Shown in pieces: positions 3,608 through 36,072 of a DNA stretch of 41,705 nucleotides. Source of the stretch: Jimgerdemannia flammicorona (taxonomy: Eukaryota). A model generated the notes under the pieces. That model was not told where the DNA came from. It made no database searches and saw only the letters and a list, made by a program, of their open reading frames with translations. Location of the stretch: assembly GCA_003990765.1 (NCBI GenBank), contig RBNJ01000103.1, positions 1 to 41,705 of the forward strand, in the 5' to 3' direction. The number at the start of each line of letters is the position of its first letter. The first letter of the stretch is position 1. A program made the position numbers and the translations under genes.

Positions 3608-3620
3608 ACTCTCCCCTTCT
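3608..3620 (-). promoter_or_regulatory. Polypurine tract
   Basis: AGAAGGGGAGAGT on the minus strand, directly before the TGT of the 3' LTR. Confidence 0.9.
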
Positions 3621-4034
3621 TAGCTTTCGATGTCCTCGTTGGGGCCTTCTAATTTGTTCTAGTATTGTTACACCATTTGCGAGGTCAAAAGTCTGGTAAG
3701 GTCCATTTTTTCTCAGAAAGTGGCATGCTCGTAGTACAGTTGCCTAACGCATTGGATTCACATGTTAAAGGGTTGTGTGTTCAATACCATGTGCTGGAAG
3801 TGATTCTGACGTCATTCACTGCTGGAGAATTTCCTCTAAGGAATCTTCTTAAATGTCTATGCCTCATTTCCCACCAGTGGTACGGGGAGAATAGGCTTGC
3901 TTTCAGTTTTGCTATTTTTCCAGAGGGTCAGTATTCTTGTCTTGTTTTGCTGAGTTCTTGGTTTAGTTTGTGATAATTATAATGTTTGGGAGGATAATAT
4001 ATAGTGTATACTGATAGGTGCAGAGTATTCGGCT

Positions 4035-7000
4035 CTAGTTGTTTAAGGAATCATATTTCTGAACTAGGTCAGTAGCATTCTGAAGATTGGTCTTGGGTTC
4101 CCAGGTTGCATTATGGATCGGGTAACCTTTCCATTTGATAAGGTACTCAGGGTGGTTCTTATTGCCACATTTGTTGAGGATTTGTTCAACTTTGTACTCT
4201 TCTTGGTCATTAATAATGACAGGTGCAGGTGGTTTGGTGGTCCAGTTTGGAAATAGCTCATCATCATTGTCATTGTATTGCTTGAGACATTGAACATTAA
4301 AGACTGGGTGATCTTAATAGTGTCAGGTAGCGCCAGTTTGTAGGAGGTTGGAGAGACTTGTGCAATGACTTCAAATGGTCCAATGAACTTGCTGTTCAGC
4401 TTTGTAGATGGTCTGTGCTTCAGGTTGTCAACTCAGTATCCTCTGATGTCTAGTAGGACTTTTTCTCCAATATCAAAAGTTTCTTCTCTGCAGTGTTGGT
4501 TAATATACTGTGATTGTTGTTCTTGGGCTTGTGATAAATTCTCGATGGCAATCTGGCTTAAATTGCGCATTTGGAGTAAGAATTCTTCAACAGCTTCGAC
4601 TGTAAAGGGTTCTTCAGTGGTTTGGATAAGTGTCAAAGGGGTGTTTGAATTTTGTCCAGTATTGGTGAAGAATGGGGTCATTCCAAGAGAGGCTTGTTTG
4701 CTATTGTTGTAGGCAAACTCAACTGTGGTGAGGTGTTCATGCCAATCATCTTGCCTGTAGGAAACATAGTTCCTTAGCATTTGTTCTAGAGTTTGGTTCA
4801 TTCTTTCAGTTTGGCCATCAGTTTCTGGGTGAAAGGCTGTGGATAGTGCAAGTTTTGTTCCAAGGTGTGCATAGAGGGCTTTCCAAAAGTTGCTGGTGAA
4901 TTTCGGATCTCGCTCACTAACAATAATCTTGGGAAGACCATGATAGTGGAAAATGTTGTCAAATAAGAGTGTGGCTATGTCTGGTGCTGTTGCAGTAGTG
5001 GTAGTAGGTACAAAGTAGGCTTGTTTGCTGAGATAGTCCACAAAGACAACAATTGCATCTTTCCCATTCTTGGTTCGGGGTAGTTGTACAATGAAGTCTA
5101 TAGAGATTTGTTCCCAATTCACAGATGGTACTGGGATAGGGTGAAGTAAGCCGGGTTTTGCTAGTGTGGAGGACTTGTTTCGTTGGCAGGCATCACAGGA
5201 AGTAAAGTAGGTTTTGAGCTGATCTGCCATATGGGGCCAATGGAAGTTTTGAGAGATAACTTCATAGCATTTGTCAAATTCTAAATGTCCAGCTGTAGGG
5301 GCATCATGACATTTGAATAGGATAGTTCTTCAGAGATCTCGGTTGTTTGGGATACAATCTGTCGTTGTAGTAGATAGCATTGTCCTTGAGTTGGTATTGG
5401 TTGTACCGGGTATACTTGTCAGCATCATTATTGTTCAGGATTTCTCAGAGTGCTTGAGCTTCCTTATCATCAATACATGCTGCAATGATTTGTTCCATGA
5501 TAGTGTTGGTAACTAAGGTCAGAGTTTAGAGAAACTCTTCGATTGGTGGTCTAGAAATTGTATCAGCAACAATGTTTTCCTTGCCAGGGTGGTACTGAAT
5601 TTCATAGTCAAAGTTGGTGAGGACTTTCATCCATCTGGCTTGCTTTCGAGAAAGGGTAGCCTGTGTCTTGATGTTGACTAATGACTTGTGGTCAGTCAAT
5701 ACAGTGAAGTGTGCTCCTTCTAGATATGGTTGATATTTGATCAGAGTGTCTACGATGGCTAGCATTTCCTTTTCGTGAGTTGTGTAGTTGATTTTGGCAT
5801 CATTGAACTTGCAGGAGTGATAGGCCACAGGGTGTCATTCTTGCATGAGCACTGTTCCAAGAGCTAGATCAGAGGCATCAGTAGTGACTTCATATAGTAG
5901 GGCAGAATTTGCCACTTAAAGTACTGGAGTGGTTATCAGGGCATCCTTTAGTGCTTGAAAGGTGGTATCTTGCTCATGTCCCCAATTTACAAGATTGTTG
6001 AAGTCTTTTTCTTATTTCATGGTCCAGGGTTGTTCTTGTTTCTTGCTGTGCTTGGTCATTTGGGTGAGGGTGGTAGCGATTTTAGCAAAGTTGGCAATGA
6101 ATCGCCTGTAATAGTTTGCTAATCCCAGGAATGACTGGAGGTCTTTCAGCTTCTTGGGTCTGGGCCAATCCTTGATTGCAGAGATTTTGCTGGGGTCTAC
6201 TTTAATTCCATTTGGAGTGACAATGTGTCCAAGGAATTGAATTTCTTTTAGAAGGAATTCACACTTACTGAGTTTTGCAAAGAGTCGGTTTTCTCGGAGT
6301 TTCAGTAGTACTAGTTCAAGGTGTTCAAGATGTTCCTCCAAGGTTTTGCTGAAGACTAGGATGTCATCAATATAGACAACAACGAATTTGTCCAGGTATG
6401 GATGCAGGATAGTATTCATCAGTATCTGGAAGGTTGCTGGAGCATTAGTTAAGCCAAAGGGCATAACCAGAAACTCGAAGTGTCCATAGCGAGTTCGGAA
6501 GGCTGTCTTGTAGATGTCTTCTTCTTTCATAGTAATTTGCCAGTAACCATTTCATAGGTCAAAGGAGCTCATGAATTGCAGGTTGGTAAGTCTATCAAAT
6601 ATTTCATCGATCCTCGGTAGTAGGCAACAGTTCTTGATAGTCTGTTCATTGAGATCATGGTAGTCAATACACATTCGCAGGTCTCCTCCTTTTTTGACAA
6701 CAAAGAGGACTGGTGCGCCATAGAGTGATATGCTGGGTCTGATGAATCCTTGTTCTAGGAGTTCATCGATTTCTTTCTTGAGTGCATCAATTTCTCTTGG
6801 AGACATGTGGTAGATTGACTTGAAGGCCAGTTTGGTGTCTGGGATAGTTTTGATTGCATGGTCTACTGCTCATTTGGGAGATAGGCCTTTCGGGAGCTTC
6901 TTTGGGAATATGTCTTGAAATTTCTGGAGTAGTGGTCTGACATGGCTGTCAACTTTGGAAAAATCTTCTTCAGAGTTCTCGGGTTCTCCTTTGGATGGTC

Positions 7001-7570
7001 GGATGGAGATGGCGAAGAGAGGGCATTTCTTGGCCAATTTCTTGAGTTGTAGCTTGTTGATGTGGGTGATCTTTGGTCCAGGGTCACTAGAGTTGAGTGG
7101 GTCCTTTTCACCTTATAGTTTGAAGTTGTGGTGTCCTTTCTTGATGGTCAGAGAATGGTTTACCCAATCAATCATGGGGTTCTCTTATTTTAACTATGGG
7201 GTTCCAAGGATGATTTCATTGTCAGGAAGTGGTACGATTTGGAGGGTAACATGTACTCGGTAGTCACCAATTTGGCAGAGTAGATTGTGGACTTCTTTGC
7301 TAATAACATGTGAGGTTCCATCAGCTGTAGCAACTGCTTGGGTTTGCTATACAGGAGAGGTGAAGACCTTGAGTCTGTTGGCTGTTTCTTCATTGATGAA
7401 GTTGCCTGAGGCACCACTGTCTATCATGATCTTGACAGATGCTCTGTTGACAAAAGCCTTAAGGGTGAGCAGTTTGTCTGATCCAATGGTGGTGATTTCA
7501 GTTATAGGAGCCTTTCTTCTGTTGGTTCTTCTTTGAGCCAGTTCGTTGACACAAGAGAAGCAATCATCAA
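4035..7570 (-). pseudogene. pol: pol: protease, RT, RNase H, integrase with GPF motif and chromodomain
   Basis: Protease [23 protein letters not shown]. RNase H TDASDLALGTVL and NYTTHEKEML. Integrase H..H..CDAC, SIDFI, SERDPKF, HPETDGQTER, KFIGPF. Multiple stops and frameshifts. Confidence 0.95.
4065..4203 (-). other. Integrase C-terminal chromodomain
   Basis: Translates EEYKVEQILNKCGNKNHPEYLIKWKGYPIHNATWEPKTNLQNA (Y.VE.IL, YL.KWKGY and TWEP motifs). Not in the ORF track frame. Confidence 0.92.
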
Positions 7571-7685
7571 TCATTTGGAGAGTACATTCCAATACCATGA
7601 GGGCATCAGCCACTTGGTACATATCCATCTTCGATCATCTTGTAGAATTGTTCTTCTTTGCTCATGGTAGGTTGGGCTGGGGCTT

Positions 7686-8100
7686 TGTTTGATGAGCTAA
7701 ATCCTTTGGATCCTCGGATGGTGGGCAGTAGTTCAGGGACTTCCTTGACTGTCAGAGTTGACTCGATTTTTTCGAATAGGATCTGGGCAATGCAGAAACC
7801 AATAGGGATCTTGAAGGGTATCCAACTGTGGTTTCGGATGAGGACAATAATTTTGCCTGTATAATCTTCGTCAATGACTCCTCCTTCTACTGAGAGTCCT
7901 TTCAGTGCTAGGCTGCTGTGACAGCATATTCTTCCAACATGTCCTTCAGGGATTTGGATACTGATTCCTGTGTAGACTTGTTTGACTTCTCAGTTGAAAA
8001 CTATAGCTTCTTCAGCTGCATACAGGTCATATACAGCTGCTTTTTGACTTTCTTTGGTTGGGGCCTTAGCAGTTTGTCTTAACTTGACAAAGTCTAGTAT
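7686..8100 (-). pseudogene. dut: dUTPase domain between Gag zinc knuckle and protease
   Basis: Translates ILDFVKLRQTAKAPTKESQKAAVYDLYAAE...TGISIQIPEGHVGRICCHSSLALKGLSVEGGVIDEDYTGKI...IGFCIAQILF...RGSKGFSSS. All five trimeric dUTPase motifs are recognisable; one internal TGA. Confidence 0.92.
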
Positions 8101-8159
8101 TCTGGTGGTCAGGTTGTTGAGGTGGTGAAGAGTGGTAACAGTTGCTCATGTTGCTGTTC

Positions 8160-10082
8160 AGGGTTTTCGGTTAGGGCAGGCACTGGCCATATGTCCTGTC
8201 TTTTGGCAATAGAAGCATGCTCCACTTCTTCGAAGTTCATTCCTTTCACCTTCAGTAAGTTTCTTGAAGGTACTTGGCTGGGTGGGTTCTTGATTTCTGG
8301 GTGTCTAAGGGGTGGACATGGAGGGAGCTCAGGATGCTTCATGCTTGAGTTCTTCTTTCTTGGTCTAAGTTCTTTCCTTGTTATTGAATTGCCTTCAGGG
8401 CAGAATTGGTCCAGCTGTTAGGATTTGCTTGACCATGGTCTTCATTCTTGCCAGGCACCATTGTTGATGATCACAACTGGGTGGCCTTGCTCTCAGATTT
8501 TTCTAGTAAGCCATTCAGGCAGGGCATCAAATAAATGGTCTGCTCTTGTACCATTTTGTGCTTCATCATTGGCAATATATCCTAGGCCAACAGTGTTCAG
8601 GAGTGACTCGAGTTTTGTACAGAAGGTTTCGAATTCTTCTTTACCATATACATCAAATTTGAGGTTGTGGAGTTTTACTCGAGATTCGGCAATCATGGTT
8701 TCACTGTGATATTGAGCAATCATGAGTTGTTTGAGTCCAGGGGCTGCAGGATGGGCTCCATATCCTGGGACATTGTTTGCTGCATTCTGAGCAACTACTG
8801 CAGGTCGGGTATCTTATGTGAGGGGTTTTTCAGGAAGGGTTCGCTACCATTCTTCGGCAGGTCCTTGAAAGAATGTAACAACTTGGCGGACATAGGCTGT
8901 AGTTGTAGCAAAGAGTTGTTCCAGAGTGTGGTCTTAATTGTTTGTCAGAATGCGGTCAGCAACTCGCTCATTAGTCCATTGATTGGCTTCGAAGTTGGTA
9001 TCAACTATACTAATGAAGCTTTGGACTTCTTGTACAGTACCATTGAATGTAGGTAGGCTCAGATTTTTGGTAGGTCGGGTCTGTTCAGCTAAGGCAGTAA
9101 TGGTTGCTGCCATTATGGCTATCTGGGCTGTGAGGTCTAGAATCTGTTGGTTTGCCATGTTGTTTACTAGAGGTGGTTGGACTGCTGGTAGTGGTGTTAC
9201 CAGTACTACTTGAGGTACAGGTGCAGAATGTGATGGAGTTCTTTAGGTCTATGTAAGTTGCTAGAGTAGTAGTTGTGGGTCTGGAGTGAGGGCTTGATAG
9301 ATAGCTGTTTGTTGCTGTGTAGGTGTATTCTGTCCTGATGGACATGTATCTCCTTCAGTGGTGTATCTGGGATCAAATTCGGTGAGATACTCCTCCTCTT
9401 CTTCAGTTTGGTCCCCATGTAATTGGGTTTGCTCGGTATCAAAGTAGATGGAATCAGTTGTATATCTGATTTCAGATGGACTTAATTCAAAGTCAAGTTC
9501 AGGTTCGGTATTGGTTTCAGATTCAGATAGGGCTATAGTAGGGCCTGCTTCAGGTTTGGGATCAGGTAGTTGATGAAGGGTTTCTCTTACTTCTTCTTTA
9601 AGAATATGGCAGGCCTTGCTGTTCTGGAATCGGTAGTATAATGCAGTCTTGGTCCTGGTACAGTGAAAGTTGGTAGAGTTGAGCCACTTGGCTACAGAGG
9701 CTTGGGCTTCATGAGGAACTAAGGCTAGAAAGACTGCTGCTGGTTGTCCTAGGTTGCTTGGATTTGTAGAGCTGACAAAACTCTTGTTGAGAAGAGTAAA
9801 GAAGGCTTCAATAAGACCTTCTTCATCTTGACTTGCTGGGTGTAGTGCAAGGAGTTTGGTGAATAGCGTTTTGCCTATTTGCTGGTTTAACCTGAGTACT
9901 TCTTTCTTTGAATGAAGTTTATTCCACTTGTTGCAGGTGTGGAGGTCAAATTGTCCTTATACATCAGGTTCAATTCTCTCCAGATTGTCAGATAGTTCAG
10001 GATAAATTCCAGTTCAGAGGTTGGGCTTTATACCAACTTGTAGGAATTCTCAGAGGAGTTTTGTAGTGGGGTGAGGAAGCAT
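8160..10082 (-). pseudogene. gag: gag with long N-terminal extension and CCHC zinc knuckle
   Basis: ATG at 10082, just downstream of the PBS. Capsid-like LPTFNGT...FI and FQGPAEEW segments. CFYCQKTGHMASAC (CX2CX4HX4C) at ~8175-8220. Stops and frameshifts present. Confidence 0.85.
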
Positions 10083-10106
10083 CTTGAAGTGGAATTGGAT
10101 TGTAAA

Positions 10107-10118
10107 CCGCTGCTACCA
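10107..10118 (-). promoter_or_regulatory. Primer binding site, probably initiator tRNA-Met
   Basis: TGGTAGCAGCGG, 3 nt inside the 5' LTR end. TGGTAGC matches known iMet-type PBSs. Confidence 0.85.
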
Positions 10119-10121
10119 AGT

Positions 10122-12183
10122 TGTAAGAGGGTTACTTTTTAAAGTAACTGTTATGTAGTTCTGGAAGGGTTTTCTGAAAGTTCTGGATATTTTAGAAGAC
10201 TGTTTTCTTATGGTCAAGGTCAATTTCATATGGAGTATATCCTCTACGCTTATTGATTTCAAGATTGGATTGACATCTCAACCAAAGTCCTTTTTTGGAC
10301 TAGTTCTGGATGTTCAGAATTTTCCGTATTTCAGGAAGTTCGAGAAACTAAGACCAGCTTAGTTGGATTGGCGTATCACTGCAGACAATACCCAATTAGG
10401 AAATTTCGTGATGGGGTTAGGAGTAGGACCTAACAAGGAGCGGATTTACTTAAGAGTGGTTTGTGGGTTATGGGATAGGTTTATTTACTATTCATGATAT
10501 TGCTATACTAGGAGTAGTTGTGTGAAGGGGTATTGTGGGGAAGTATTCAGGAATGTTCTTATGTGTTTGAGTCTGAGATTCTGAGGTCTGGGGGAGAGGG
10601 TATTTATACTAGTGAGGGACTATCTGAGCTATGCTAGATATGGATGTAGCACTAAGTGTCTTGCTGAGTCAGAATGCAGTCACATAGTACAAGTATAATC
10701 TGACATGTCAAGAGATCGTCTGACCACTGAGTCAGTTCACAGTCTCGTCATACAAGGCTAATCTAACTATACTATAACTGCTAGACTATTTATGGGTTTA
10801 GGCACTGTCTGGGTAGTCCTCGATGATATTACCATCAATTGCATCATCTCTGATGAAGTAGTCATCTAGGAATAATGGTTCACGGATTACTTCTCCTTGT
10901 TCACTGAGGTAATAATATATTGGAACTTCATCTCCATCCCACAAGATGGCATCATCAGTCTCATATGCTGGATAAGGTATTGGTGGGCGAAGGAGGGGTG
11001 CATCATTTTTGCTTTTGTCGGATTCACTGTCTGCATATCTTCTATAGGTTACGGCACTGTGAGTTGCGGGGTTATAGTATGCTGGTGGCTGTGGTTCATG
11101 TCACTCATACTCAGGTAGTGGAGAGGTTGGTTCAATCTCGAGGGTTGTCTAGAGGTACAGGTTGTGTTCTCCAGTCTCTTCATTATAGTTGAAGTAGTCG
11201 GGGGTGAATGCGGATTGGTATTCGTGCCAGTGGTCATTGTCCCAATAAGTCTCGTATGTAGTTATGAACTGTTGTAAGTTCATTGGCAAGGTTGGTGGAG
11301 TGATCAGAGTTGGCAGAGATCCTTGGCTAGAGGTCATGTCGGTGTCAGAGAGATCATTGTCTTCTGCTTTGTCTTCATTGAAGTGAATTATATCATAGAT
11401 GTCCTTCATGGCATATCCAACTTGGGGCATTTGCAGGATTTGATCATTGGGGTGTGGGAAGGTTCTGTCTGTGGTTTCAATATACTCAAGGTACTTGTGG
11501 TTGAGTTCTTGTATCATGTCATCGATTTGGCCATAGGACAGGATAGTAACCATTTTGCTGGTAGTAACTCAGAGGCAGGGAATAATGGTACTGTACTCGT
11601 AGAAGAGTTCTCGATGTTTGCGGGCAATGAGCTTCTGGTGTTGAGACATCTCGGTAATGTCTGTATCGTGGTGGTGTTCGACCATATCTTCCAGGAGGCA
11701 GCTGATCTGGTAGTAGCTTGAGATTTGTTCGATTCGGTGGGCCTTGCTAAGTATGTTCAGAGCATTCCATCAGGCTTCCACGAAGTAGAGGGGTGCTAGG
11801 CTATGGATATTCATGAGGGGCAGAGGGAGTGTGGCTCGGTTGACAATGGCATTCAAAATGTCAGTGCGGATATGGTTGTAGATTTCAGTGGTCATGTTTG
11901 TGTATTTGGAAGTTGTGGTTGTTGTTTGTTTTGGTTCTCTGATTCGATGCATCTCGGTGCTTGGTATATATACATTTGGTCCTGATTGGTAAGGTTCCGT
12001 TTGTATAAATCTTGTATTCTGTGACTTCATATTGACTCAGCTTTGTACACTGTGACTTCAGTTTGACTCAGCTTCATGATCAAGCAGGTGATTTACAGAT
12101 TTGTTCGAAGGTCGCATGTGATTTCAGTGGCTTGTTCAGAGGGTGACGTGTAATTTCGGTAGCTTGGGGGTTGTGTGCTTACA
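10122..12183 (-). repeat. 5' LTR (2062 bp)
   Basis: TGTAAGAGGG...GCTTACA. Colinear with 1548-3607; differences are nearly all transitions. Confidence 0.97.
10798..12030 (-). pseudogene. Second copy of the U3 ORF (1233 nt = 411 codons, no net frameshift, internal stops)
   Basis: ATG at 12030 to TAA at 10798 is divisible by 3. Stops at 11770 (TGA; CAA in the other LTR), 11149 (TAG; CAG in the other LTR) and the shared TGA near 11101. Confidence 0.7.
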
Positions 12184-13203
12184 TTAATAGCCAAGAACAT
12201 ATTTCTGAGCAATGAGATATTGTAATCATAAAAGACACCCAAACTGCCAAGACTGCAGACACTAGAAGATTCACCTCAGCTATGATATTGTAATCCACAC
12301 ATTGAAGAGAGAAGATAACAGAACTCAGATCTGAAAAGTTAAGTCAAGAAACCAGAAAGAAGGATCCTCAAGATCTATAATTTGAAATAAGATATCTTAG
12401 CCCTCATCAGACATACAATCTACCATAAATGGGTAGAAAATGCTAACAACTTTTTGGAAGCATTAGACCCCACAGGAAAGAGAGAAATTAACTATCTCTG
12501 AGACCCTTCTACTGAAGTCAGATGGTTATACCTCAATCTCAAAGCCTGGAGGCTTTCTGCCAGAGAAGCTTCAGCCCAAGGATAGCCAGAACTCAGCAAA
12601 GATGTCACCCAGTATATCCTACTACATCTCAAGGCCAAACCTCCAACCAAAGCTCACCAAGAAGATATAGGGTATGACCTCTACAGTCTGGAGGATGAAT
12701 CCATCAGATCTGGAAGAATATTGATGTTCAGAATAGAACTAGCTATGCAGTCACCCAAAGGAACTTATATTCAGTTAACCTCAAGATCTGGACTTGCCAG
12801 ATAAGAAGTAACTATAAAAGAAAGAACCATAGACCCAGGATAGACAGACAAAATTAAGATCATCTTGCATAATAGTGGCACAAAATGATATCAAATCCTT
12901 AGAGGACAGAAGATTACTCAAGCAATCTTCATGAAAATCAAGACCCCTCAATTATAAGAAGTCTCCAAACTGACCAAAGGAACAAGACAAACTGAAGGAT
13001 TTGGAAGCTCAGATAAGAAAGAAGTATATCTCCTCTAGGCCAACTACCTCAAGAAGGATGCCCTTCAGCAAGTATATTGCCAATCAGTCAAATTGCAGAA
13101 GAACCTTATCCTGGAGCCTGGAGAGCAAACCATTTTCGAAATCTTTGCACCACCCAACCCCAGGAATCTCTTCTTTGAACCCAATGAAGACATCCTGAAC
13201 CTG
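12184..13203 (+). mobile_element. Internal fragment of a second Ty3/gypsy family containing a dUTPase (12601-13015)
   Basis: Translates ...KAKPPTKAHQEDIGYDLYSLE...LTSRSGLAR*...TIDPG*TD...GQRITQAIF...RQTEGFGSS. 12368-13203 aligns with 23476-24312. Confidence 0.88.
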
Positions 13204-15085: not shown

Positions 15086-17861
15086 TCACTGGCGAGGACG
15101 TTTTTGCTTCGGCTTCGTTGGCGTCGTCATACAATCGGGCATTGCCCTTTCTTCTTTTCTCCTTTTGACAATCATTTCTTGAAAGGACGTTGCAATCGTC
15201 GGGACTCTTGTGCTCAAGGCTTTCGCCGTTTCCTGTACGGCTCTCTATAAAGTGTAAAGGGTGTATAAAGAATAACATGAAAATAAAGAATAACATGAAA
15301 AGAACGAAATAGCACTACCTTTAAAGTTACATACAATTACATTACCTTAATATTCAATATTGCTGCAAGGATTGGAAGAAGTGCTGTAATACTTTCCTCG
15401 CAATTGGGAACCTCCATTATCTCTCCTCGTTGAATTCTGCAAACAAACCCACCGGGACAGTCCATGAAAATGGGCATCATGATAAGGCCTATAAATAGTA
15501 GGTAGCAGGTGAGCATCCCCACCTCATTTCTGTTTAATTTTGTCATAAAATACTCACCCGAATGTATAATTCCGACCGTTTGCATTCTTGAACAAAGCTC
15601 TGGTTTCCAATCCGCCTTTCTCATCAACTTGGTGAGCATGTCTTTCAACGCTTTCGGCACCTTGAGTCCAGCCTCCATGAATTTCGTGCCGAAATTGTCC
15701 GTCCACTCCTTGGCTGCCTCGCCTACACCAAATTCGTCGCGGTCTCCGTTCCCAACGCTCCTTAACACCCAATCGCCTCGATGTCCTACATTGCGACGAT
15801 CATTGGATTTGCGATGGCCATTCTTTCGGAGAGCTGTTGACATGGTAATGTTTTCCCCACTTGATGGATGAGATATGAAATCCAATTAGATATTTATCAG
15901 CAAACAACAAAATTGCTAATATATAAAATATATGGCTTTTACCGAACGACAGAAATTCCTGAGAGATTGCCAAACCCTTGGTCAACTATGACATGCCATA
16001 TGTGACAATTGTACCAAGACTCCAAGTTGTTATGTTTGAGATGACCACCTTCAATTTCCCGAATCCTGTAAGATCAAACTTCAATAACTGCCATTAAGAA
16101 CTCATTGCAAGATTAAGATAATTGAAGCCTTACACTGTATGCAATGCATATCGAATGTAATCAAGATCGTGGTATGCATCACGCGTATATCCTCTCCCAA
16201 ATCGTTCGTCTTGGGAATTCAGAGTCTCCCTAACATCTGCGACCTTCATTTTCGTGCTGAATCTGCTCAGATATTCTGCGACGTCTTCGGAGAGTTGCGG
16301 AACGCTCGGTTGTGGCGCTGTAGTTATCTCTTCGAAATCCTTGTCATTGAAATGATTACGCACATTGTCGTCCTCTGTGTCCAAGATAAATGAATGTGTC
16401 CCACTGGAAATAATATAGCCAAAACTATTACCAACAAATTCTTGTAAAATTCCAAGCAAAGGAATGTCTATAGCTACTTACTGTTCGTAATTTAGACCCT
16501 TTCCGATCTTATATAGTTCCTCCTCAACGATCGTGCCGCTTTCTAGTCTCCACATTTGTGCCTTCGGCATACGGTTGAATGCCATCTTTATCTCCTTTCT
16601 GTGATAACTTGTCAACATCGGAGGGGCGGTCTGCAAGGGACAAATAACGGCACTCTTCAATTTCAACTGCATTATGATTAAAGTCCCAAACAATGAAAGC
16701 TCACCTTATCTGCCACAGGGTTTATATAATTTTTATCCTCCCTCAATTCTTTTCCTTCGTCCTCGCTTTCTTCTGGGGTGGAGTCCTTAATGAACCTTCG
16801 AAGGGCCAGCTCTTCACTTTCGGTGTCGTTGTTGCTGTCGCTGCTGTCATTGTCTTCATTGTCACCGACGTCGTCGTCAGCGCCGCCGTCGTCGTTGTCG
16901 TCGCCGCTGTCGTTGTCGTCAACGTCTCTGACGTCGTTGTCAGCGCCGTTGTCGTTGCCGCTACTGTTGTCGTCATCGTTACCGTCATTGGCGCCAGCGT
17001 CATCATTGTCGTCGTTGCCACCTTTGACTGAGTGCTGAAAAAAGAAAAACAAAATATTATTGAATTGATCGCCACCTCCAAAACAAACAATCCAAACATC
17101 TTGTAAATAAATGGAAACAAATATAACGGATTTCAGGGTAGTCTTTTCAATATCTTCCCAAAATGTGGTAACACTTTGGAATGCTTGGCGGTGGTTCTTT
17201 TGAGTGGATGTTGGAAATTAAGAAGGTAAGTAAAACATATTTGAAACGGAATAAGGCCGAAAATGTCTGGGGTTAACCAGCAAATAACGTAAAATGGATC
17301 CGCAGAGCATAAGGTCGGCAAAAAAAATTTGAAGAAAGTAGTTGGTACACAATTAAGATGCAGTTCGCAGATGACCCTCCCAGTCACATATATATATACG
17401 TATAGGGCCATCAGACGTATTCACAAAAATGATGACAAATAACAACCTACCTTGAAATTTTTTAATAGAAGTTGGCATGAATTCCTCACTTCGTCAAATT
17501 CACTTCTCGAGAACCGTTTCAGCTCCAGCAAAAATTTTGTAGCTTCTTTGCGGAAACAGAAGGTGAAATCCTTCTGATGCTGGCGAAACTCATAGAACCC
17601 AATGTGGCTGTACTCGCTGGCAGGTGTTTCTCGGAAATATTTCGAAGATGTTTGTGGCCTCACTGGTTATGGAAAAATAGACACACCGCAGTTCCAGCAA
17701 TGAAGGCGTTGCGAACACACACAGAAAAACGGTTGATAAAAGAAGGCAGGTTTACTTGTCGTTGCTGGGGTCTGGATTTTTCCTTCGGCTTTCACTTGAT
17801 TCCTAATGTATGGCTTTTGGGCAGGAGCAGCAGGTCGGTGGGGGGCTTTCTTTTTGGGCAT
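15086..17861 (-). CDS. Intron-rich (~10 exons) gene for a putative PD-(D/E)XK restriction-endonuclease-fold protein; apparently intact
   Basis: Manual GT-AG splicing gives MPKKKAPHR..., KYFRETPASEYSHIGFYEF, TFWEDIE, an acidic D/N tract, MWRLESGTIVEEELY, EHGTHSFILD, ESWYNCHIW, RGE...RKN...GHRGDWVLR...EFGVGEAAK...K.PKALKDML, GIIHSG, MDCPGGFVCRI, ending ...KQKRPRQ*. The nuclease fold is inferred from motif order. Confidence 0.8.
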
Positions 17862-23475: not shown

Positions 23476-26400
23476 TCAAGATCTATAATTTAAGAGAAGA
23501 CATCCTAACTCTCATCAGACATACAACTCACCAAGAATGGGTAGAAGATGTCACCAATTTTATAGAAGCCCTAGACCTTACAGGAAAAAGAGGAATTAAT
23601 TATCTCTAAGATCTTTCTACTGAAGCCAGATAGCTGTACCTCAACCTCAGAGCTTGAAGACTTCCTACCAGTGGAGCTTTAGCCCAAGAATAGCCTGAAC
23701 TCAGCAAGAACGTTGCTCAGTATATTCTGCTACATCCAAAGGCCAAACTTCTAACCAAAGCTCACCAAGATGATATATAGTAAGACCTCTACAGTCTGGA
23801 GAATGAACCCATCAAGCCTGGAAGAACATTAGTGTTCAGAACTAGACTAGCCATATAGCTACCCAAAGAAACTTATATCTAACTAACCTCAAGGTCTAGA
23901 CTTGTCAGACAAAGAGTAACTATAGAAGGAGAAACTATAGATCCAGAATACACAAGTGAAATCAAGATTATCTTATTTAATAGTAGTATAGAATAGTACT
24001 GAATTCTTAGAAAATAAAAGATTATACAAGCAGTCTTTATAAAAGTCATGAGCTTTCAATTATAAGAAGTCTCCAAACTGACTGAAGGAACAAGATAAGC
24101 TAAAGAATTTGAAAGCTCAGATAAGAAGGAAGTATATCTTTTTCAGGTTAATTATCTCAAGAAGAATATTCCTTAGCAAGTATATTGTCAATCAGTCAAA
24201 CTGTACAAGAATCTTATCCTGGAGCCCAAAGAGCAAATTATTCTTGAAATCTTTGCACCATCTGACCCCAGAAATCTCTTCTTTAAATTCAATAAAGATA
24301 TCTCAAATCTGGATATTGGAGGTCATACATTTCCTGATAAGATGAATCCAGTACACTTCTGAGCAACTAACCAGAGCTAGAAAAGTATTATCTTGCCAAA
24401 AGAAACCATCATAGGATATCAGTGCCCTTCCTCAACTGAACCCATAGAGAAGTCTATGAGCTAAACTTATTGAGAAATAGCAAAAGGTCTCAGAAGAAAA
24501 GAAAGGCCCCTCTGTAACCCAGGAGACAGTAAAGCCTTCCATCAATATTGGAGAAGAATTGATACCTCAGTAATAGTAACAACTAGTAGAACTCCTCAAT
24601 AAATATCAAGATATCTTCACTACTAATTATAGTAATCTGCTATATAGCTCATCATACTACTATATTATAAATACAGAAAATGCAACACCCATTTGATAGA
24701 ATCTCTATAAAATACCCCACTACCTAAAGATATTCAAAAAGGAATATATTTAAGAACTCTTAGACAATAGAGTCATCTGACCCTCAACCAGCTCTTAGGC
24801 CAGCCCTACACTTATTATACTAAAGAAAGGAGGATAGAGACTCTGTGTAGACTATAGGAAACTCAATTTAGTCATCAAGAAGAATACCTATTCTTTGCCC
24901 TGAATTGATGACCTCTTGGACCAGTTACAAGATACCAGATACTTCAGCAGTATGGATCTTTTCACAGGATTCTATAAGATCTCCATGAATCTCAAAGATA
25001 TTTAAAAGACAGTCTTCTTAGCTCTAGAAAAACTGTTTGAATACCTCTGAATGCCCTTTAGACTTTGCAATATACCTCTCACCTTCCAGAGAATAATGAA
25101 CTCAATCTATGGCCCACTGATTTACTACTTCTAATTGTATATATAGATGATTCAAACATATATTTAGCTAATTTCGAGAAACACTTACATCACCTAAAAG
25201 AATTCTTTAAGCTCATCTATAAGAATCACCTAGACTCAATACCAAGAAATACTACTTTGGAAAACAGAAACTTAAATTTCTTGGATTCATAATTTCAAAA
25301 GAAGAAACTCATACAGACTCAAAGAAAATAAAGAAGATCAACAATTGGCTAGTACCCAAGACCCCAAAGGAAATACTATCATTCCTAATACTAGTATCCT
25401 ACTATAGAAGATTTATCAAAGACTTTGTCTAAATTGCTGCTCTAATCCAAATCCTTCTCAAGAAGTCTCTTACAAATAGACAGAATTATAAGAGAAAGCC
25501 TTCAAAGAACTCAAGTACTGTATGACTATAGCACCAATCCTTATTTCGCCCAATTTACAAAAGCCATTTATCTTGTATATAGATGCTTCTAAAGATGGTC
25601 TTAGAGTAGTTCTAGCCCAGAAAGGACCTGATCAACAATACTATGCGATAGCTTATACAAGTCAAGCAACCAATTAGCAGCAAACCAACTATAGTAGCAC
25701 CAAACTGAAATATCTTACAGTCATATATATAGTTACTCTGTTAAAGCATTATTTTATCAGAAAAAGATTCACTCTAATAACTGACCATGCAGTCTGCAAA
25801 TGGCTATTCAACTGTAAGAACCCCATCAGAATCCTAGCCCATGAATTCATATCCTTCAGAATTACACAATCACCATTATTTACAAAGTAGAGAAAGCTCA
25901 CAACAATGTTGATGTCTTTTCTGCCAACTCTAATGAATCAGAAGAAGAGTGTACTGAAAAGGAAACCTCAGACCATCAGAGTACAAGAAGATCTCATCTA
26001 GAAAGAATACCAGAAAACCTATCAAGGATAGGTGAATATAGAAGAAAAGCTGTAAATAATATACCAACATTGGCCCAATCTCAGAATATAAGTCTGGAAT
26101 ATACTCAAGAAATGTGATATCTGCCAGAAGTACCAAAGAAGGAAGAACCATTAAGCACCACTATAACCAATCATATGTACCATCAGACAGCATCTTTCAG
26201 AGATAGAGAGTAGATGTAATTGGACCTTTACTCATTATACCAAGAAGAAATAAGTATATTCTTATATTTGTGAAATATCTAACCAAGTGGCCTAAAGCTT
26301 TTCCAATAGAAATCACAGATGACTTGACTATTATAGACCTCTTCTATAGACTCACACTCAGATATAGACCCCCAGAAGAACTTATCTCTAATTGAGGCAC

Positions 26401-28049: not shown

Positions 28050-29400
28050 AAGTCAGTCTTCTGATACAACTTCACAGTGGAGCCAGTCCATCTGATTTAA
28101 CCCTGCATAAATGAAGTCAGTCTCGACATAACTTTGCCAAGAATCTGCATCATCCAAGTTATTTCCCAGAAACCCACCAATTCAGAAAGAATCCACATCA
28201 TCTGAGTTATCTGCTATTTTTGAGTTATCTGCCATATTCAAGAAGCCTGCCAATTCAGGAAGAATCCATGACATCCGGGTTATCCGTGTCATCCAAGTTA
28301 TCTGAGTTATCAAGTTATCTGATATTCCCAGAAGAGTCTGCCGATTCAGGAGAATCTACGCCAAACCAAGTTATCTGAGTTATCTGCCAAATTGAGTTCC
28401 CTGCCAAATGCCAAGATCATCACACAGAAATTGCATAAGGAGCTAAACAAGATCGTCACGCAGAAATCACATACTTTTGGAGATCATCATGCTATACAAG
28501 GATCGTCAACTACATACATGCAAATCATTGCTCACACCCAAGTACCCATCTCAATAAGAAAATCGACCATTGTATCCAGATTGACTATTATACCAGTAAA
28601 CACCAACAAGGAATCTTAGAACATTTTGTTGCTTTTTGACAAAGTAACTGGGGGCTCAAGCCAAACTACATCAACCCCCAACCTTGTAATTTGTCTCTAT
28701 TGAGCTGGGCACATTACAGTATTAATACTATAAAAAATGCAGGCATTTCAAGCACTATCTCTATAGGTGCTGTGGGTGAGTCTTTCTCCAATATTATAAT
28801 AGGTAAGAAACTCTTCTCTGAGATAGTTCTGATCATTCCATCATTTATACCAGAGGAGGGTAGTGATAAACTCATAGGTGTCAGAATTTTCTATCATTTA
28901 TGGCTGGTCTGAAACTTAGTGGTTGATGGTATAGACTCCTTCATTCTTGATGATTTCAATGATACAGTTGATCTGAGAGGTATTGTATATTATTGTAAGA
29001 GTAGTAGAGATTATAGAGTAAGTATAGTTATTTTAGGGGTAATTATACTATGGTTGATGACTGAACTAAACAGGTTTTCATTATTTGCTAACTAAGTCTT
29101 GATCTTCAGTGAATTACTAGAGGTCATGCTGATGTTTGTAAGTATTGAGTAATTCATCAGTATTTGGCGGAAGGTATTCTTTGTATTTCCAGATAGAGTC
29201 CCAATTAGGGTATCCTTTCTATTTGATCAGATAGTATCTAGTTAGTTTTAGTGATCATCTATATCTTCTTCTTGATATTGTAGGATTTCTTCTACTTTAA
29301 ATTTAATATAGTCTGTGAACTTTACTGGGTCTAGGAGTGATACTGTTTGTCCTTCAAAGGGGTTGGATGTATACTGTCATAGTAGAGATATATAGAACAT
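28050..29400 (-). mobile_element. 3' end of another chromovirus (chromodomain, PPT, partial LTR 28050-28670 with internal GAGTTATCTG repeats)
   Basis: NPFEGQTVSLLDPV...FKVEEILQY and YLIK*KGYPNWDSIW at ~29190-29370. PPT TGGGGGTTGA (28671-28680), then TGTAG at 28670. Confidence 0.8.
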
Positions 29401-29546
29401 ATCTTTCCCCACCGGAAAAGAAAATGAAAAAAAAATGATATCAGTAAGAAGACATCCGTGTACATGTTCCGGAGATAAATGGCATCGATCTCTAAACCCC
29501 TCTCAAAAGGGAACCTCCTGCGGATTTTAGCATTACGCAAACCCAC

Positions 29547-29762
29547 CTTAAAACAATCCGGACACATAAGCCTACTCGTTAACTGTCCATGGAACAGGTC
29601 GACAATGATTGAGTCGAACCTGGCTTTATGGTACTTCCAGCTGATCCTAACGACCTCGGCGTCTGGCCAGCCGTCGAAGATGGACCATTCGATGTAGGGC
29701 ATCTTAATAATGCGATCTAGGTCTTCGTGAAGACCGTCCAGCAAGAAACCCCGTAGCTCCTG
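29547..29762 (-). pseudogene. Isolated 216-nt exon of a USP4/11/15 (Ubp12)-like deubiquitinase catalytic domain
   Basis: ttcag|QELRGFLLDGLHEDLDRIIKMPYIE...DSIIVDLFHGQLTSRLMCPDCFK|gtgggt. Neither the Cys box nor the His box is present in the window. Confidence 0.85.
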
Positions 29763-29984
29763 CTGAAAGGTGAGGATGGAAGAATGGCAGAGAGATGTGA
29801 AAGGGGGCGCTTCTTGTAGTACTTTACGCGCATAATATTCTTGATGAAAAAACGGTTTTCCTCAAAAATAATAAATAATAACAATACAATTCCCATCTGG
29901 TTCCTTCTCACCCATTGTAGAGTCCATTATTACCCAGCAACCTACCATAAACTCCCTAGGACAGTTCACACGGTTCCAACATAC

Positions 29985-31810
29985 TTCGGAGATTCAGCGT
30001 AGTCAGTGTTTTATTCTGCTTCAGAGACTCGCTCAGTGAGCGTCCTCCACCAGAGCTGACCTTATTACCTTAGATTGCACAAGGGATGGATAGACGAGCA
30101 AACACTCAAAGATCGTAAGCTGGAGCCCATCACACCGCTGCAAATAACAACTCACACAGTTCAAATATACCTCGGAGATTCAGTGTGGTCAGCATCATGT
30201 TCTGCTTCAAAGATTCGCCCAGTGCATGTCCTACCTCAGAGCCAGTCTTATTGTCTGAAGACACAAGGGATCGAAGGATGAGCAAATACACAAAAAATCA
30301 CGAGCTGGAACCCATCAGCAATCAACAATTCGCACAGTTCTAACATACATGAGAGATCCAGCGTGGTCAGTGTCGTGTTCTGCTTCAGAGACTCGCCCAG
30401 TGCGCGTCCTCCCTCATCACCAATCCCATTCCCTTATATGAATAAACACGCAAAGTTCATGAGCTGTAACACATTACGTAGCTGCAAACAGCAGTTCTAA
30501 TGATTCAAACATACAAGAGAAATCCAACGTGGTCAGCGTCGTGTTCTGCATCAGAGCCTCGCCCAGTGCGAGTCCTCCCTCGTCGCCGATCTCATTGCCT
30601 TAAAATGCACAGGGATGGATGGATGAGTAAATACACAAAGATCATGAGCTGGAACCCATCATGCAGCTACAAAAAGCCATTCCCACAGTTCAAACATACC
30701 AAAAAGATTCAGAGTGGTCAGCGTTGTGTTCTGCTTCAGACACTCGACCAGTGCGCGTCCTCCCATGTCGCCGATCTCATTACCTTAAAATACACAGGGG
30801 GTTTGTGGATGAGTAAACATGCAAAGTCAGTATGCCGGAAGCCATCTCGCAGCTGTAAATAGAAGTTCACACAGTTCAAATACAAGAGAGATCCAATGTG
30901 GTCAGTGTCGTGTTGTGCTTCAGAGACTTGCCCAGTGCGCGTCCTCCCTCGTCGCCAATCATATTTACTTAACAGGATGAGTAAATAGGTAGAGGTAGTG
31001 AGCTTGAACCCATCATGCAGTTGCAAACAGCAGTACACATGGTTCAAACATACTAAAGAGATTCAGCGTGGTCAGCGTCGTGTTCTGCGTCAGAGACCCG
31101 CCCAGTGCGCGTCCTCCCTGAGGGCCGATAATATTGTCTGAAATGCACAATGGATGATGAGAAAACATGCGAAGATCATGAGTTAGAACCCATCACTCAG
31201 CTGCAAACAGTAGTTTACAAAGGTGCAAAGGGGAAACATACACGAGATATTAATCGTGGTCAGCGTCGTGTTCTGCCTCAGAGACTCTTCCCAGTGCGCG
31301 TCCTCCCTCATCACCGATCCCATTCACTTAAAATGCACAGGGAATGGATAGATGAACAGACACGTAACGATCGTGAGATGGAACTCGTCATGCAGCTGCA
31401 AACAGTAGTTCACACGCTTCAAACATACTCGAGAGATTCAGTGTGGTCAGCGTCATGTTCTGCCTCAGAGACTCGCCCAGTGCCTCGCCACCAATCGAGC
31501 TGAAACCCATCACGCAACTGCCAACAGCAGTTCATACAGTTCAAACATACCAAAGAGATTCAGCGTGTCAGTTTCGTGTTCTGCTTCAGATACTCGCATA
31601 GTACGCGTCCTCGCTCGTCGCCGATCCCTTTCCTTTAGAATGTACCGGAGATGGATGGATAAGCATACACACAAATTTCCTCAGCTGCGACCTATGATGC
31701 AGCGCAAATAGCAGCATAAATAGTTCAAACATACCTTGGAGGTCAGCATCGTGTTCTGCTTCAGATACTCACCCAGTGCGCGTCCTTCCTCAGAGATGAT
31801 CTTATTTTCC
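29985..31810 (-). repeat. Tandem array of 11 intron+exon units, each exon one 28-aa RNI/NLRC3-type LRR
   Basis: Intact 84-nt AG|...|GT exons at 31054-31137, 30884-30967, 30700-30783, 30515-30598, 30349-30432, 30171-30254 and 29985-30068 (consensus NxIGDEGGRALGESLKQNTTLTTLxLx). Homologous 82-102-nt introns. The four units nearest the kinase carry indels. Confidence 0.95.
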
Positions 31811-33236
31811 GGGATTCAAGTACTACCCGGAACTGCTGGTTCTCGCGAGAGTGCCATGCTACCCAATCCATCCACCACAACGGCTGCGTCCTCTCTGACG
31901 TTTTCTTTTTGCTCAACTTCAGCCTCCTCCAACAGTTCCGTCAGTGCTCCCAACCGCGTCAGTGCTCCCAACCGTGTCAGTACCTCGACCACCTTTGGCC
32001 TCAGGGCAGGATCGCCATCCCAACACTGGGTGTAGAGCTCAATGTATTCCTTTGGCGTGCTCTCGATAGTATCCTCCGCATCCCCTGGCAGATGTGCATG
32101 GGAGTCATGAAATCGGCATGCGGGAAGGGAAGGGCCCCATCCGCGCTGATCTCCCAAAAGATTACGCCCAGGCTGTAGACATCTCCGCGCACGTCGTGTT
32201 TAACCTTCGGGTTCCAAATGCGCTCAGGCGACCTTTGTGTTTGTCGGGGAAGCAAAATTGGATGGATAATTACGTATGGGACGTTGTGTATAGAAAATAA
32301 AACGAAAAACATGTCTTGGAGGAAAAATATTTGGTATATATACATATGGCACGCGTCCTTCAACAGGAAGCTTCGAAGTTTCGGCTGATGCCAGCCGGCT
32401 CAGGCCAAAGTCTGCAATGAGCGCCCTTCTCGTGGCATTGATGCTACCAAGTACGTTGCCACTAAATCAGTCACCAAGGCACAAGGTTTTTAAAAAATAA
32501 ATACCACACATGAACAAGAGATATTCACAGAATGTTACCACTGTGCAAATCGTGGTGTATCACGTTTCCATCGTGTATGAAATCGAGCGCTTCAGTGATT
32601 TGGTATGCGAGCCTCAGCCTATCTCCCCAGGTCAGCCGGCCCTTGTTGATCTTAAGATAATCTGCAAGGGAGCCCTGCTCAGCGTATTTCATTACCAAGA
32701 AATACGAGTTCATCATGAGATCTGCATTTTGTGGATACCATTTGGTTGATTATGGTGTAAAATTATATGAGCCTTGAGAAGAGAAGAAGGAAATCAATCT
32801 CCAATCCATACCTCGTGATACACCATAGCATCTTGCAACGAAGTCTTCGTCGTCCACCTTGCGGAGAATTTGCAGCTACGACAAAGTTCAACTAACGTGA
32901 GTCTCAACGTTGTCCGTTGCGTGTTCCAACTTAAAGAAACGCACAGCTACGTAATTACCTCCTTTACAAAGATTTGTACCCCGCTAGATCGCACTCGACA
33001 ATGTTCAAGTATTTGAGGGCGTATTGCTTTTTGCGCTTTATGCTTGTAACACGGTAAATAGCGCCAGATCTCCCTTGAGCGATAAAGACGGGTTTGTTGA
33101 ACTCGTTCAAGGGGAAGAGGTCGATTCGATTTTCGTCAATGGCAGCCTGAAGTCAATCCATAATGGATAATCGGTCAGAGGTCACTAACGGAAAGATGAG
33201 GGAGACAATGAAAGGGACTCGATCAAACGCAGACAT
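29985..33236 (-). pseudogene. Tyrosine-kinase-like protein kinase fused to RNI-type LRRs; multiple lesions
   Basis: Spliced kinase motifs IAQGRSGAIY, YALK, FVKE|LQIL, LVMKYAEQGSL, IHHDLHSGNIL|INATRRALIADFGLS, SPE, DVYSLGVIFWEI, CWDGDPALRP. The kinase frame runs through one TGA (31816) into the first LRR. Stop at 33153; frameshifts near 32985 and 32077. Confidence 0.88.
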
Positions 33237-33679
33237 GGCTTAGGATCTGTTAGACGTTACGAATTTTGATATGATCGCATAATCTCCATCCTGGATAATT
33301 AGATTTGTAAGTATCTCCACCTGAGTTCCCCCTTCCCCTCTCCATTTCCCCTCTCCACTGGCCTCCCCGTTCTCATTCACGCCTAAGCCTCGGCTTCCGC
33401 TCCCATGCCCCTAGACAGCTAAGATTGTTTGCCAGCGAGCCCATCACCAAACCCGCGTCGCATGACCCACCAAACGCCTCCCTATCACCGGCGCCACAAC
33501 CCGCCCTTCTCTTGCTGTCGACCGCGAACGTATGGTCAACTCCATTGCCGTGAGATTTACGAACCAGCCGGTGGAAATTCCGTAAGTGGCTTGGGAGACC
33601 CCGCATACCGTATAATTATAATAATGAAAGTTCCCAGATTGGCATCAATAAGGCGTTCTTCGCCAATTCGGCGTCTGAT

Positions 33680-36072
33680 TTATTTTCTACATATTATCTT
33701 GTTCTTCTTAGAGGGAGTCTGCACACAGTCTTCGATACAAAACAGTTGAGACTTTCGTTTCTTTACCCCTACGGCCTGCAGTTCTTGCAGTTGACTATCT
33801 TCATTATCATGGTTTTCGGCAGATTCAACGATGTCGACGACCTCCTTAACGATGGCCTATCATTTGAAATGCAGATTATGATGAAAATCTATTTCACAAG
33901 CGTTACGTATTTCGTATGAACCATTCAATCTGGGTGTTTACCTTGGCTTTCCATATCAACGCCAGGAAAGGTACCACCTGTTGACCAAATAATCCAACGG
34001 TCTGCGGAATAGTATATATTGGGCTCCTCACCACCCGGCACACATAACCCCTTGGAGAATCTAATCTCAACAGCAAAACATTCAACTCTGTTGAGAAGTA
34101 TAATAATATCGACAATGTTGATTAGCTAGCGCTTAAACGAAGTGCTGCGTCATGAGTACTCAAGAAAGATATGTTCTACTAACCGGAAAATATCCAACCA
34201 ATCACCTGTAACCTTCTCACTTTCTCAACGTCCCACTTCACCGCATTACACAGATTGACAAACATGTCCTTCTGCATCTTGGGTGCTTTTAATCCCCGTT
34301 CCTTCAGTATCTTAGTACCATTCTCTCCCTCCCATTCTTTACCCGCTTCTCCATTTCCATACTCATTGTGATGTTTTCTGATAATGAGGTCGCCGCGTCT
34401 ACCCATCATCTTATGTGCCACCTGCATCAAGCCCGAAACACTGCGTGTTCTGTTTTTCCGGTACGACGAAGTAAAACTCGATGCTTCGCCACGTACACTA
34501 TACATATCTTGTAAATTGAGAAAACACCGATCGATGACATGCCAGCAATGCATAAGGGTAGTGAATTTCTAAATGCCCAGTGACCAAATTACCGCCTTCA
34601 TATTCTTGCACCCTAATAATTGATTGTTAATGGTATTGAGTCCATTATTTCATATCAAGGGAGTCACATGTCGTTAAACAAGTGATTTTCAAAATATAAA
34701 AATCTCCGCAGACGACAATACAGAAGAAAGAAAGAAAACCTTACAAATTGTGAACAGAATTCTTGATCCAGTCGTGATCAAAGTGATATTCCCTTCTAAA
34801 ATTAGCCCCTTCCCAATCTTGAACCATGGATAGTTGTGATCTTAATTCCTCGATAGAACTCTGTCAAAGGTAAGTAAGAAAGTCAGCATCGTAATCCTAT
34901 GAGCAATAGAATAATCCCACTTTTCTTAGAGGACATCTTACTTTGCGGAAGCTGTTCATATATTTCATTAAATCTATCGGGATATCTGGTAGTGACTTTG
35001 TATCGGTCTCCTCAATCTCAGTGAGCTCTCCCTCCGTGAACACACCATGTGCAATGTAACTCGTGTCGTCCGGGTCAACGATGAATGACTGAGACAAGCT
35101 AAGGAGGTAAAAAAATTGTGAGTACGATGTAAATACGAATAAAACTCAAATGGAAAGTTGAACATCTACATACTGTTCCGATTTGCATCGTCTTGCATAT
35201 TCAAATAACGCATCCTCGACAACCTTTCCAGTTGACAACTTCCACTTCTGACTGTCATTCATTCTACGAAATACCTCTTCGACTTCTTTCCACGTACTGG
35301 ATCCAGCTGCATATATCCCTTCATCCTCACTTTCCTCTTTGCTTTCCCCTTCAGCCACACTTTCATTTTCTGTAAAGACTTCTCGTTCTTTTTTTTCATC
35401 GTCGGCGAAAATATCTGGTATTTCATCTTGATAAACCGTTGTTGGAGATTCATCCCCTGGTAACATCGTTCTAGGGCTCCTAATCTCGGATATGAATTCA
35501 TTTGTAGTCTTCTGGCTCATAGCAATGTGTTCGGAATGGATGTTCGATTCAATAACGTTCTTATGTTGACTCTACATAGTGGAAATTCTGAGTTATTATT
35601 GAACGCAAGATCAAAAGAACCGATGTATGGAAATATATAATGAAAATACGTAGTTCTCACCCGTCGCTGCTCTAAAATGAATAATGAATTCTTCGTCAGC
35701 TCTCTTTCCTCATTAATCATCATTTGGTTCCAATATCGTTCTGCATGTTTTGAATTGGTCATCCGCTCGAACCTTCCAAGGAGCCTCGTTGATTTTTGTT
35801 TGACCAGCGGATCGTCCGAGGCAGACAGCTTTTGCAGGTATTGTCGCAGATCGTCTTCCGCGTCTTGGCGCAACCTACTATTACTCCAGCCTTTGTACTT
35901 GTAAAATTTGACGGCGGAGAATTGCCTCAAAAAGGTCCGTATATCCTAATTATATTATGGTTATGAGATAATATATATATATGAGACATACGCATATCGT
36001 CTTGTTATTGAGCACCACTACGATAACCTCACGAATACTAAGTATCAAAGGGAACCTTACATTTGAAGCCAT
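33680..36072 (-). CDS. Paralog of the 15086-17861 gene (putative PD-(D/E)XK nuclease-fold protein); one apparent +1 frameshift at ~34557
   Basis: Spliced product contains KWKLSTGKVVEDALF, EHLSQSFIVDPDD, DWIKNSVHNL, WHVIDRCF, RGE...RKNRTR...GRRGDLIIR...EYGNGEAGK...KAPKMQKDMF, LDSPRGYVCRV. Four intron positions and phases are shared with the paralog. Confidence 0.8.

Follow-up and report, generated by a model that had tools for sequence, protein, structure and literature searches.

The seven short exons that lie in a row on the minus strand of this Jimgerdemannia flammicorona DNA, each of them carrying one leucine-rich repeat (LRR), raise the question of whether the point at which they are joined has been shaped by selection. 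The initial annotation placed every splice junction in a variable, surface-exposed codon of the repeat, indicated that no combination of exon ends and exon starts would give a stop codon, and proposed that skipping or shuffling of exons would create new residues at the binding surface. These proposals are considered here together with the anatomy of the exons, their transcripts and the state of the gene to which they belong. The term window refers to the whole stretch of DNA that was analysed (41,705 nt).

Anatomy of the repeat exons

A pattern scan and a follow-up script showed that the region 29985-31137 of the minus strand holds seven exons of exactly 84 nt each. In the direction of transcription they are located at 31054-31137 (exon 1, which starts with AC and ends with A), 30884-30967 (exon 2; TA and T), 30700-30783 (exon 3; GT and G), 30515-30598 (exon 4; GC and T), 30349-30432 (exon 5; GG and T), 30171-30254 (exon 6; AC and G), and 29985-30068 (exon 7; GT and A). 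AG stands just 5' and GTAT just 3' of all seven. Introns of 82-102 nt, all in phase 1, separate them: the first two bases of each exon finish a codon and the last base opens the next one. The seven exons run consecutively without a stop codon or an indel, and the six junction codons are ATA, TGT, GGC, TGG, TAC, and GGT, encoding I, C, G, W, Y, and G.

One exon corresponds to one 28-residue LRR of the ribonuclease-inhibitor (RI) class. The consensus of the seven repeats is NxIGDEGGRALGESLKQNTTLTTLNLx, with nine invariant residues, and in 7/7 exons the phase-1 introns cut codon x28, directly preceding the conserved Asn of the LxxLxLxxN motif. Exon coordinates and translation thus confirm that the split codon is the x before N and that it reads as initially described. 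The same holds for the neighbouring x positions, where codon 25 is N or D, codon 27 is F, S or R, and codon 2 is I, M, E, G or K, and for the bases at the exon ends and starts. One item has to be removed from that list of exon ends, as the 3' base A of exon 7 is no junction base in the RNA contigs, where this exon runs on to 29946.

Regarding its classification, the array belongs to the RI-class LRRs (LRR_6) by its 28-29-residue period and the consensus LxxLxLxxNxIgdxGaxxLaxxLxxNxx, and a profile of the seven repeats matches RI-like LRR chains in the PDB (E 3e-12). Single exons reach LRR_6 (PF13516) scores of 23.4 bits (exon 5) and 22.5 bits (exon 4) with a cut-off of 23.4, values that stay near the cut-off because each exon spans parts of two Pfam units. 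A DNA profile built from the seven exons recovered 11 LRR units between 29987 and 31806, all of them on the minus strand, seven intact and four decayed ones upstream; the same profile found no LRR units in the rest of the 41,705-nt window.

Transcription and decay of the kinase-LRR locus

The RNA evidence consists of spliced contigs of the locus from two public runs (X1 and X2), which come from two studies and are not recorded as RNA. Splice joints are listed for 15 of 39, and every statement about joints rests on those listed. Among them, the GT..AG joints 30068>30171 and 30254>30349 on the minus strand are present in both runs, which gives exon 6 RNA joints on both sides and confirms two of the six junctions. 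GTATTT, a weak donor, opens the intron after exon 2 (30784-30883), and contigs of both runs retain this intron; the RNA pieces 30699-30967 and 30699-30922 are contiguous across it. The last repeat exon ignores the GT at 29984 and continues through an in-frame TAG (29958-29956) to 29946, with its donor at 29945; as transcribed, it covers 29946-30068 (RNA pieces 29946-30065; joint 29762/29946). The transcript is chimeric, since a ubiquitin C-terminal hydrolase-like fragment at 29000-29762 of the minus strand, made of two exons (29547-29762 and 29000-29402; PF00443, E 2.7e-7), is spliced behind the LRR array after this stop codon in contigs of both runs.

The contigs that match the locus are numerous (298 in X1 and 180 in X2), and 221 and 120 of them, respectively, are 90-95% alike. 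The contigs stack mainly over exons 4-6, with the peak of RNA depth on exon 5, which is the nearest of the seven to the many paralogue transcripts. This pile-up indicates that the organism expresses many paralogous LRR sequences.

One X2 contig connects the LRR exons with those of the kinase and with a 5' exon. The 5' exon (33247-33581, minus strand like all exons of the gene) is found in one RNA contig and is non-coding, with stops in the frame that continues into the kinase exon. The intron that follows it (33147-33246) seems to start with AT and not GT, which may be an alignment slip, as the piece has three gaps. Further downstream lie the kinase N-lobe exon (32959-33146), a 64-nt kinase exon at 32812-32875 (LQILRKVDDEDFVARCYGVSR) located by tblastn with RUO95987.1 and of a length that would account for the 64 unlisted letters of the long RNA contig, the exon with the catalytic loop HHDLHSGN (32529-32721; PF07714, E 1.7e-12, and an RNA piece), the exon with ADFGLSR (32342-32446; RNA contig and tblastn), and a long exon (31735-32230) that carries the kinase C-lobe, a linker, and the first, decayed LRR unit. 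A protein kinase domain of the TKL type, matching PK_Tyr_Ser-Thr, is predicted from these exons, and its HRD motif reads HHD. The exon 32529-32721 is 100% identical in its aligned part to RUP48195.1 (P0001) from J. flammicorona, a protein that departs from the window at several residues elsewhere. The locus also aligns by tblastn along all of RUO95987.1 (P0002), a J. flammicorona paralogue in which the kinase domain is intact. No match to a NACHT domain was found in the ORFs scanned, and the RNA contig goes from the kinase directly into the LRRs. An NLR is recognised by a central NACHT or NB-ARC domain, and by this criterion the locus is not an NLR.

The alignment with RUO95987.1 revealed several breaks of the reading frame. 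A one-base frameshift after GYKSL in the N-lobe exon leads to a TAA at 32966-32964, and a second frameshift is located at ICQGMR, near 32070-32090, in the long exon. The latter also has an in-frame TGA (31818-31816) after PGST, just ahead of the first repeat. Another TGA (33155-33153) corresponds to the third codon of the paralogue's start, in a region that is spliced out as an intron in the RNA contig. The four upstream LRR units measure 82, 71, and 85 nt or are without their end: Ua (31551-31632, 82 nt) starts with GA and is internally out of frame, Ub (31429-31499, 71 nt) is truncated by a deletion that extends from the intron into the exon, and Uc (31242-31326, 85 nt) is frameshifted.

Several of these breaks alter the length of a short run by a single base, as long-read errors would, and the gene could then be intact and functional, with its frameshifts introduced by the assembly. 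This explanation is extremely improbable. The RNA contigs of two runs show no indel with respect to the window over either frameshift site, with 0 gaps in the pieces over the N-lobe exon and in the pieces 31734-32230 and 31842-32169 over the long exon, and the NCBI model RUP48195.1, which comes from another assembly (two J. flammicorona genomes exist, according to the accessible text of PMC12574304), reads through the ICQGMR site in the same shifted frame. Moreover, Ub is missing part of both its exon and its intron, and nonsense codons are present. The frameshifts are real mutations, given that the RNA contigs have no indels and that RUP48195.1 reads the shifted frame. The kinase-LRR locus is a transcribed pseudogene with the seven exons as its intact tail, and it yields no receptor protein because of the breaks that precede the array. 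It would thus have lost its function; against the view of a dead gene, the seven clean 84-nt exons and a pN/pS of 0.49 at scaffold codons point to constraint at least until recently, and the 3' array might still be used somehow.

The surroundings of the gene are largely Ty3/Gypsy debris. The region 240-12100 contains fragments of the Ty3/Gypsy chromovirus type, with protease, RT, RNase H, integrase, chromodomain, and dUTPase domains, and includes direct repeats (1548-2636 and 10122-11212, 93-95% identical) and an inverted duplication (253-1548 and 6271-7570, 95%). Another dUTPase fragment is located at 12586-12804, and the segment 12368-12667 is repeated at 23476-23775 (81%). A block of low G+C content (31-34%) between 23000 and 28000 has the appearance of an old, degraded retroelement and retains an RT_RNaseH remnant at 25678-25890. 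Concerning other open frames, two on the minus strand (15337-15885 and 34179-34568) are paralogues of each other, with 39% identity (E 7e-19), and neither matches a Pfam family; the second is separated from the kinase-LRR gene by about 1 kb, on its upstream side. An Asp/Asn/Gly-rich open frame without a Pfam match (16678-17217, minus strand) runs over tandem repeats of 18-63 nt (16825-16957).

Stop-free junctions and variability of the split codon

At a phase-1 junction, a stop codon requires an exon ending in T followed by an exon starting with AA, AG or GA. As had been claimed, none of the 49 end-by-start pairings of the seven exons gives a stop codon; the 7x7 table contains 11 different residues, and, by arithmetic, a change in the order or number of the exons would alter the residue at the junction. 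This much of the proposal that skipping or shuffling would create new residues at the binding surface holds. Together with the hypervariability of the junction codon, it could indicate that a phase-1 junction in a surface codon and the avoidance of stop-forming combinations are a selected device for generating diversity by exon skipping or shuffling. The X2 contig that links kinase and LRR exons could be read in the same sense, as it has only 165 letters between the exon end at 31735 and exon 2. These would represent two of the four intervening units, with about two left out, and Ua plus exon 1 (166 nt) fits best.

However, that the seven exons pair without a stop is no more than chance would produce (P about 0.2-0.4). 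The probability that no exon among seven starts with AA, AG or GA is 0.23 under uniform composition, 0.22 with the dinucleotide composition of the gene, and 0.17 with that of codon positions 2-3 of these exons. The probability of no stop-forming pairing whatsoever is 0.30-0.34, or 0.42 on condition that none of the six real junctions contains a stop, so that 30-42% of such arrays would present this feature by chance. Moreover, the adjoining unit Ua starts with GA, and the T-ending exons 2, 4, and 5, as well as unit Uc, would give TGA when paired with it.

The paralogues provide a further comparison. Thirteen junction codons, taken from the loose ends of contigs and the letters between joints on the assumption of the same intron position, read AAC (four), TAC (three), GAC (two), AGT (two), TAT (one), and GGA (one). 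Four of them begin with T, and the GGA, which implies a GA start, belongs to a well-covered paralogue transcript, indicating that stop-forming combinations exist in the family. Starts of the stop-forming type are found in 1/13 paralogue junctions (P 0.18-0.27) and in 2/21 when the units of the window are included (P 0.12-0.22), as expected. The suggested depletion of AA, AG, and GA starts, approximated here from paralogue transcript fragments, is therefore not supported, their frequency being no different from expectation. Nor does stop avoidance hold as a designed property in view of the chance-level probabilities and of the exceptions, Ua with its GA start and the GGA junction. As for skipping itself, among the 15 of 39 joints listed there is no boundary-to-boundary joint of non-adjacent exons of the seven, in contigs that miss rare isoforms, and the locus is broken upstream.

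The variability of the junction codon was compared with that of the rest of the array. The mean pairwise diversity per site among the seven exons is 0.75 at the split codon, 0.60 at codon 27, and 0.51 at codon 2, and it is 0.187 at the remaining exon sites, 0.285 in the aligned introns of the array, and 0.136 at four-fold sites of invariant residues. The 6-nt window formed by codon 27 and the split codon has a diversity of 0.675, a value reached by none of the 82 six-column intron windows (maximum 0.511). These figures rest on seven short sequences with a split codon near saturation, and they compare repeats, not orthologues. The variation at the junction positions is thus above that of introns and synonymous sites, and this excess is real. 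It is consistent with past diversifying selection, which seven short, partly saturated sequences cannot prove.

The variability of codons 27, 28, and 2 could also come from neutral drift at unconstrained positions that have never been under diversifying selection. Codons 2 and 27 have a pN/pS of 1.40 and a wider set of x codons one of 0.98, the latter being in line with drift, as are the low number of repeats, the near saturation of the split codon, and the fact that comparisons between repeats differ from those between orthologues. Nevertheless, at 0.62, the pooled diversity of codons 2, 27, and 28 exceeds the diversity of the co-duplicated introns by a factor of about two and that of the four-fold sites by a factor of about four, no random draw of nine intron columns reached it in 100,000 (a test inflated by the choice of these codons for their variability), and the intron windows fall short of the junction window. 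Drift alone is a possible explanation, although a somewhat unlikely one.

In RI-type LRRs, x27 and x28 are located where the beta-strand ends and the next loop begins. The accessible part of Hoss et al. 2019 (PMC6642158) also underlies this placement. The same two positions before Asn are the most variable ones in related fungal proteins: in 83 distinct repeats of 12 Mortierellomycotina proteins they show the highest entropy (3.6 and 3.4-3.5 bits), and an earlier count on 55 Mortierellomycotina repeats gave the same two positions. Judging from these alignments, the junction would not be the cause of the excess variability, which appears to belong to the x27/x28 position of the fold, in relatives too.

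Regarding the residues found there, K, E, and Q together (xAA/xAG codons) occupy the split-codon position in 3/83 of the Mortierellomycotina repeats vs 17/83 for the preceding position (Fisher P 0.0014, at the protein level only), a difference that could speak in favour of a selected device. In a profile search, with 150 representatives that are the best listed of 12593 matches, the split-codon position favours G, N, S, D, and Y across 1441 repeats, and K, E, and Q add up to 137/1441. Against a device, they are also rare (9/144) in 15 uninterrupted reading frames, which are metagenome-contig calls or bacterial sequences; metagenome gene calling would yield only uninterrupted frames. The rarity of xAA/xAG codons at the junction would therefore be largely a residue preference of the fold, since the bias towards G, N, S, D, and Y is also present in uninterrupted frames. 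Considering both sides, a device selected for exon skipping or shuffling is very unlikely.

Searches for further relatives gave few results. A protein search with the 88-aa kinase end and linker had 0 matches among 4694 candidates, and the 61-aa stop-to-stop frame that holds exon 5 had only two distant matches among 31 candidates. With the exception of the two kinases RUP48195.1 and RUO95987.1, no Jimgerdemannia LRR paralogue protein was present among 30 entries checked, and an exon-motif scan of metagenome DNA had 0 matches.

Origin of the array and its place among known repeat genes

The seven exons are probably the best-kept part of a transcribed, decaying gene of cassette origin, and their freedom from stop codons would be a by-product. 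The gene would once have encoded a TKL-type kinase followed by a C-terminal array of RI-class (LRR_6) repeats. The array may have grown as a cassette of about 185 bp, formed by one 84-nt exon and about 95 nt of intron, was duplicated in tandem, and such duplication would explain why every exon is one 28-residue repeat with phase-1 borders at the same codon. TRF detected a period of 185 with 72% matches across the array, and the introns are homologous to one another (aligned mean pairwise difference 0.27). Evidence for exon movement or duplication at this locus is this homology of exon and intron within the array. A simple block duplication is not demonstrated, because the similarities of exons and introns between units are uncorrelated (r -0.34 and 0.11). 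The junction codon and its neighbours would be the least constrained, and possibly diversified, positions of the fold, which could explain why they differ between repeats. The stop-free pairing would then result from the low number of exons, only seven, and from the residues favoured at that position, with no selected device.

This modular, frame-preserving layout with one LRR per exon is of the type known from NOD and NLRC genes. According to the accessible text of Hoss et al. 2019 (PMC6642158), a single exon encodes one 28-residue RI-class LRR in most human NOD and NLRC genes, and the authors propose this layout as a precondition for variants generated by splicing. As far as this source describes them, the vertebrate genes resemble the array in their frame-preserving one-repeat exons, whose borders recur at one place, within or beside the beta-strand, in every repeat. 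They differ in having a NACHT partner, whereas the partner here is a TKL kinase, in a fungus and at a broken locus.

A second parallel is found in the LRR-ROCO genes of brown algae, which, in the available parts of Zambounis et al. 2012 (PMC3341825) and Teng et al. 2024 (PMC11378527), have 72-bp phase-2 LRR exons encoding 24-residue repeats. Exon shuffling and alternative splicing, proposed as sources of diversity, are described for them in the same portions of these papers, together with positive selection at exposed sites and numerous pseudogenes (PMC3341825, PMC11378527). On this information, both systems share one LRR per exon of constant length and a multiple of three, a uniform intron phase that splits codons, and variable exposed residues. 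However, the ROCO repeats are N-terminal to ROC-COR, whereas those of J. flammicorona are encoded by 84-bp, phase-1 exons, are 28 residues long and of the RI class, and lie C-terminal to a kinase.

Among the matches listed, the closest repeats are those of RNI-like proteins from Mortierellomycotina (P0100, P0012, P0006, P0069, P0061, P0042, P0137, and others), with at most 20/27 identical residues. They have the common consensus NxIGDEGAxALAEALKxNTTLTTLDL and share with the array the two most variable positions before Asn, but their N-terminal parts differ from this gene, being Sel1, Arm, NACHT or none. In terms of architecture, the likeness is with P0154 (Gonapodya), P0108, and P0122 (a Capsaspora TKL protein), which combine a kinase of the Tyr/Ser-Thr type with RI-class repeats. 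The repeats are C-terminal to the kinase in P0154 and P0108, as they are here, and the LRR is N-terminal in P0122. Unlike this gene, these kinase and LRR_6 proteins bear extra Sel1 or MLKL_N domains.

The literature search retrieved no description of LRR exons of this kind in Endogonales or Mucoromycota. Among RI-class LRR genes this architecture is ordinary, and only its host lineage makes it new. Beyond this locus, it is conceivable, although we consider it doubtful, that Endogonales possess a large expressed family of RI-class LRRs built from 84-nt phase-1 cassettes, with diversifying selection on the residues next to the junctions, evolving by cassette duplication and birth-and-death, and serving as intracellular recognition modules on kinases or other domains. 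If this were true, such a family would be to fungi what the NLRC receptors are to animals and the ROCO receptors to brown algae, with this locus as one dead member.

In P0086 (Mortierella sp. GBA30, KAG0204571.1), a fungal NACHT protein, ARM-like repeats are followed by NACHT and then by LRR_6 as the sensor repeats. The outcome for the present DNA is a fungus whose modular RI-class LRR exons resemble those of animals and which expresses many paralogues. According to the accessible text of a review (PMC10197012), fungal NLRs predominantly have non-LRR sensor repeats, for example WD40 or TPR, and for this reason a family of such LRRs in Endogonales and Mortierellomycotina could broaden the view of recognition proteins in fungi.
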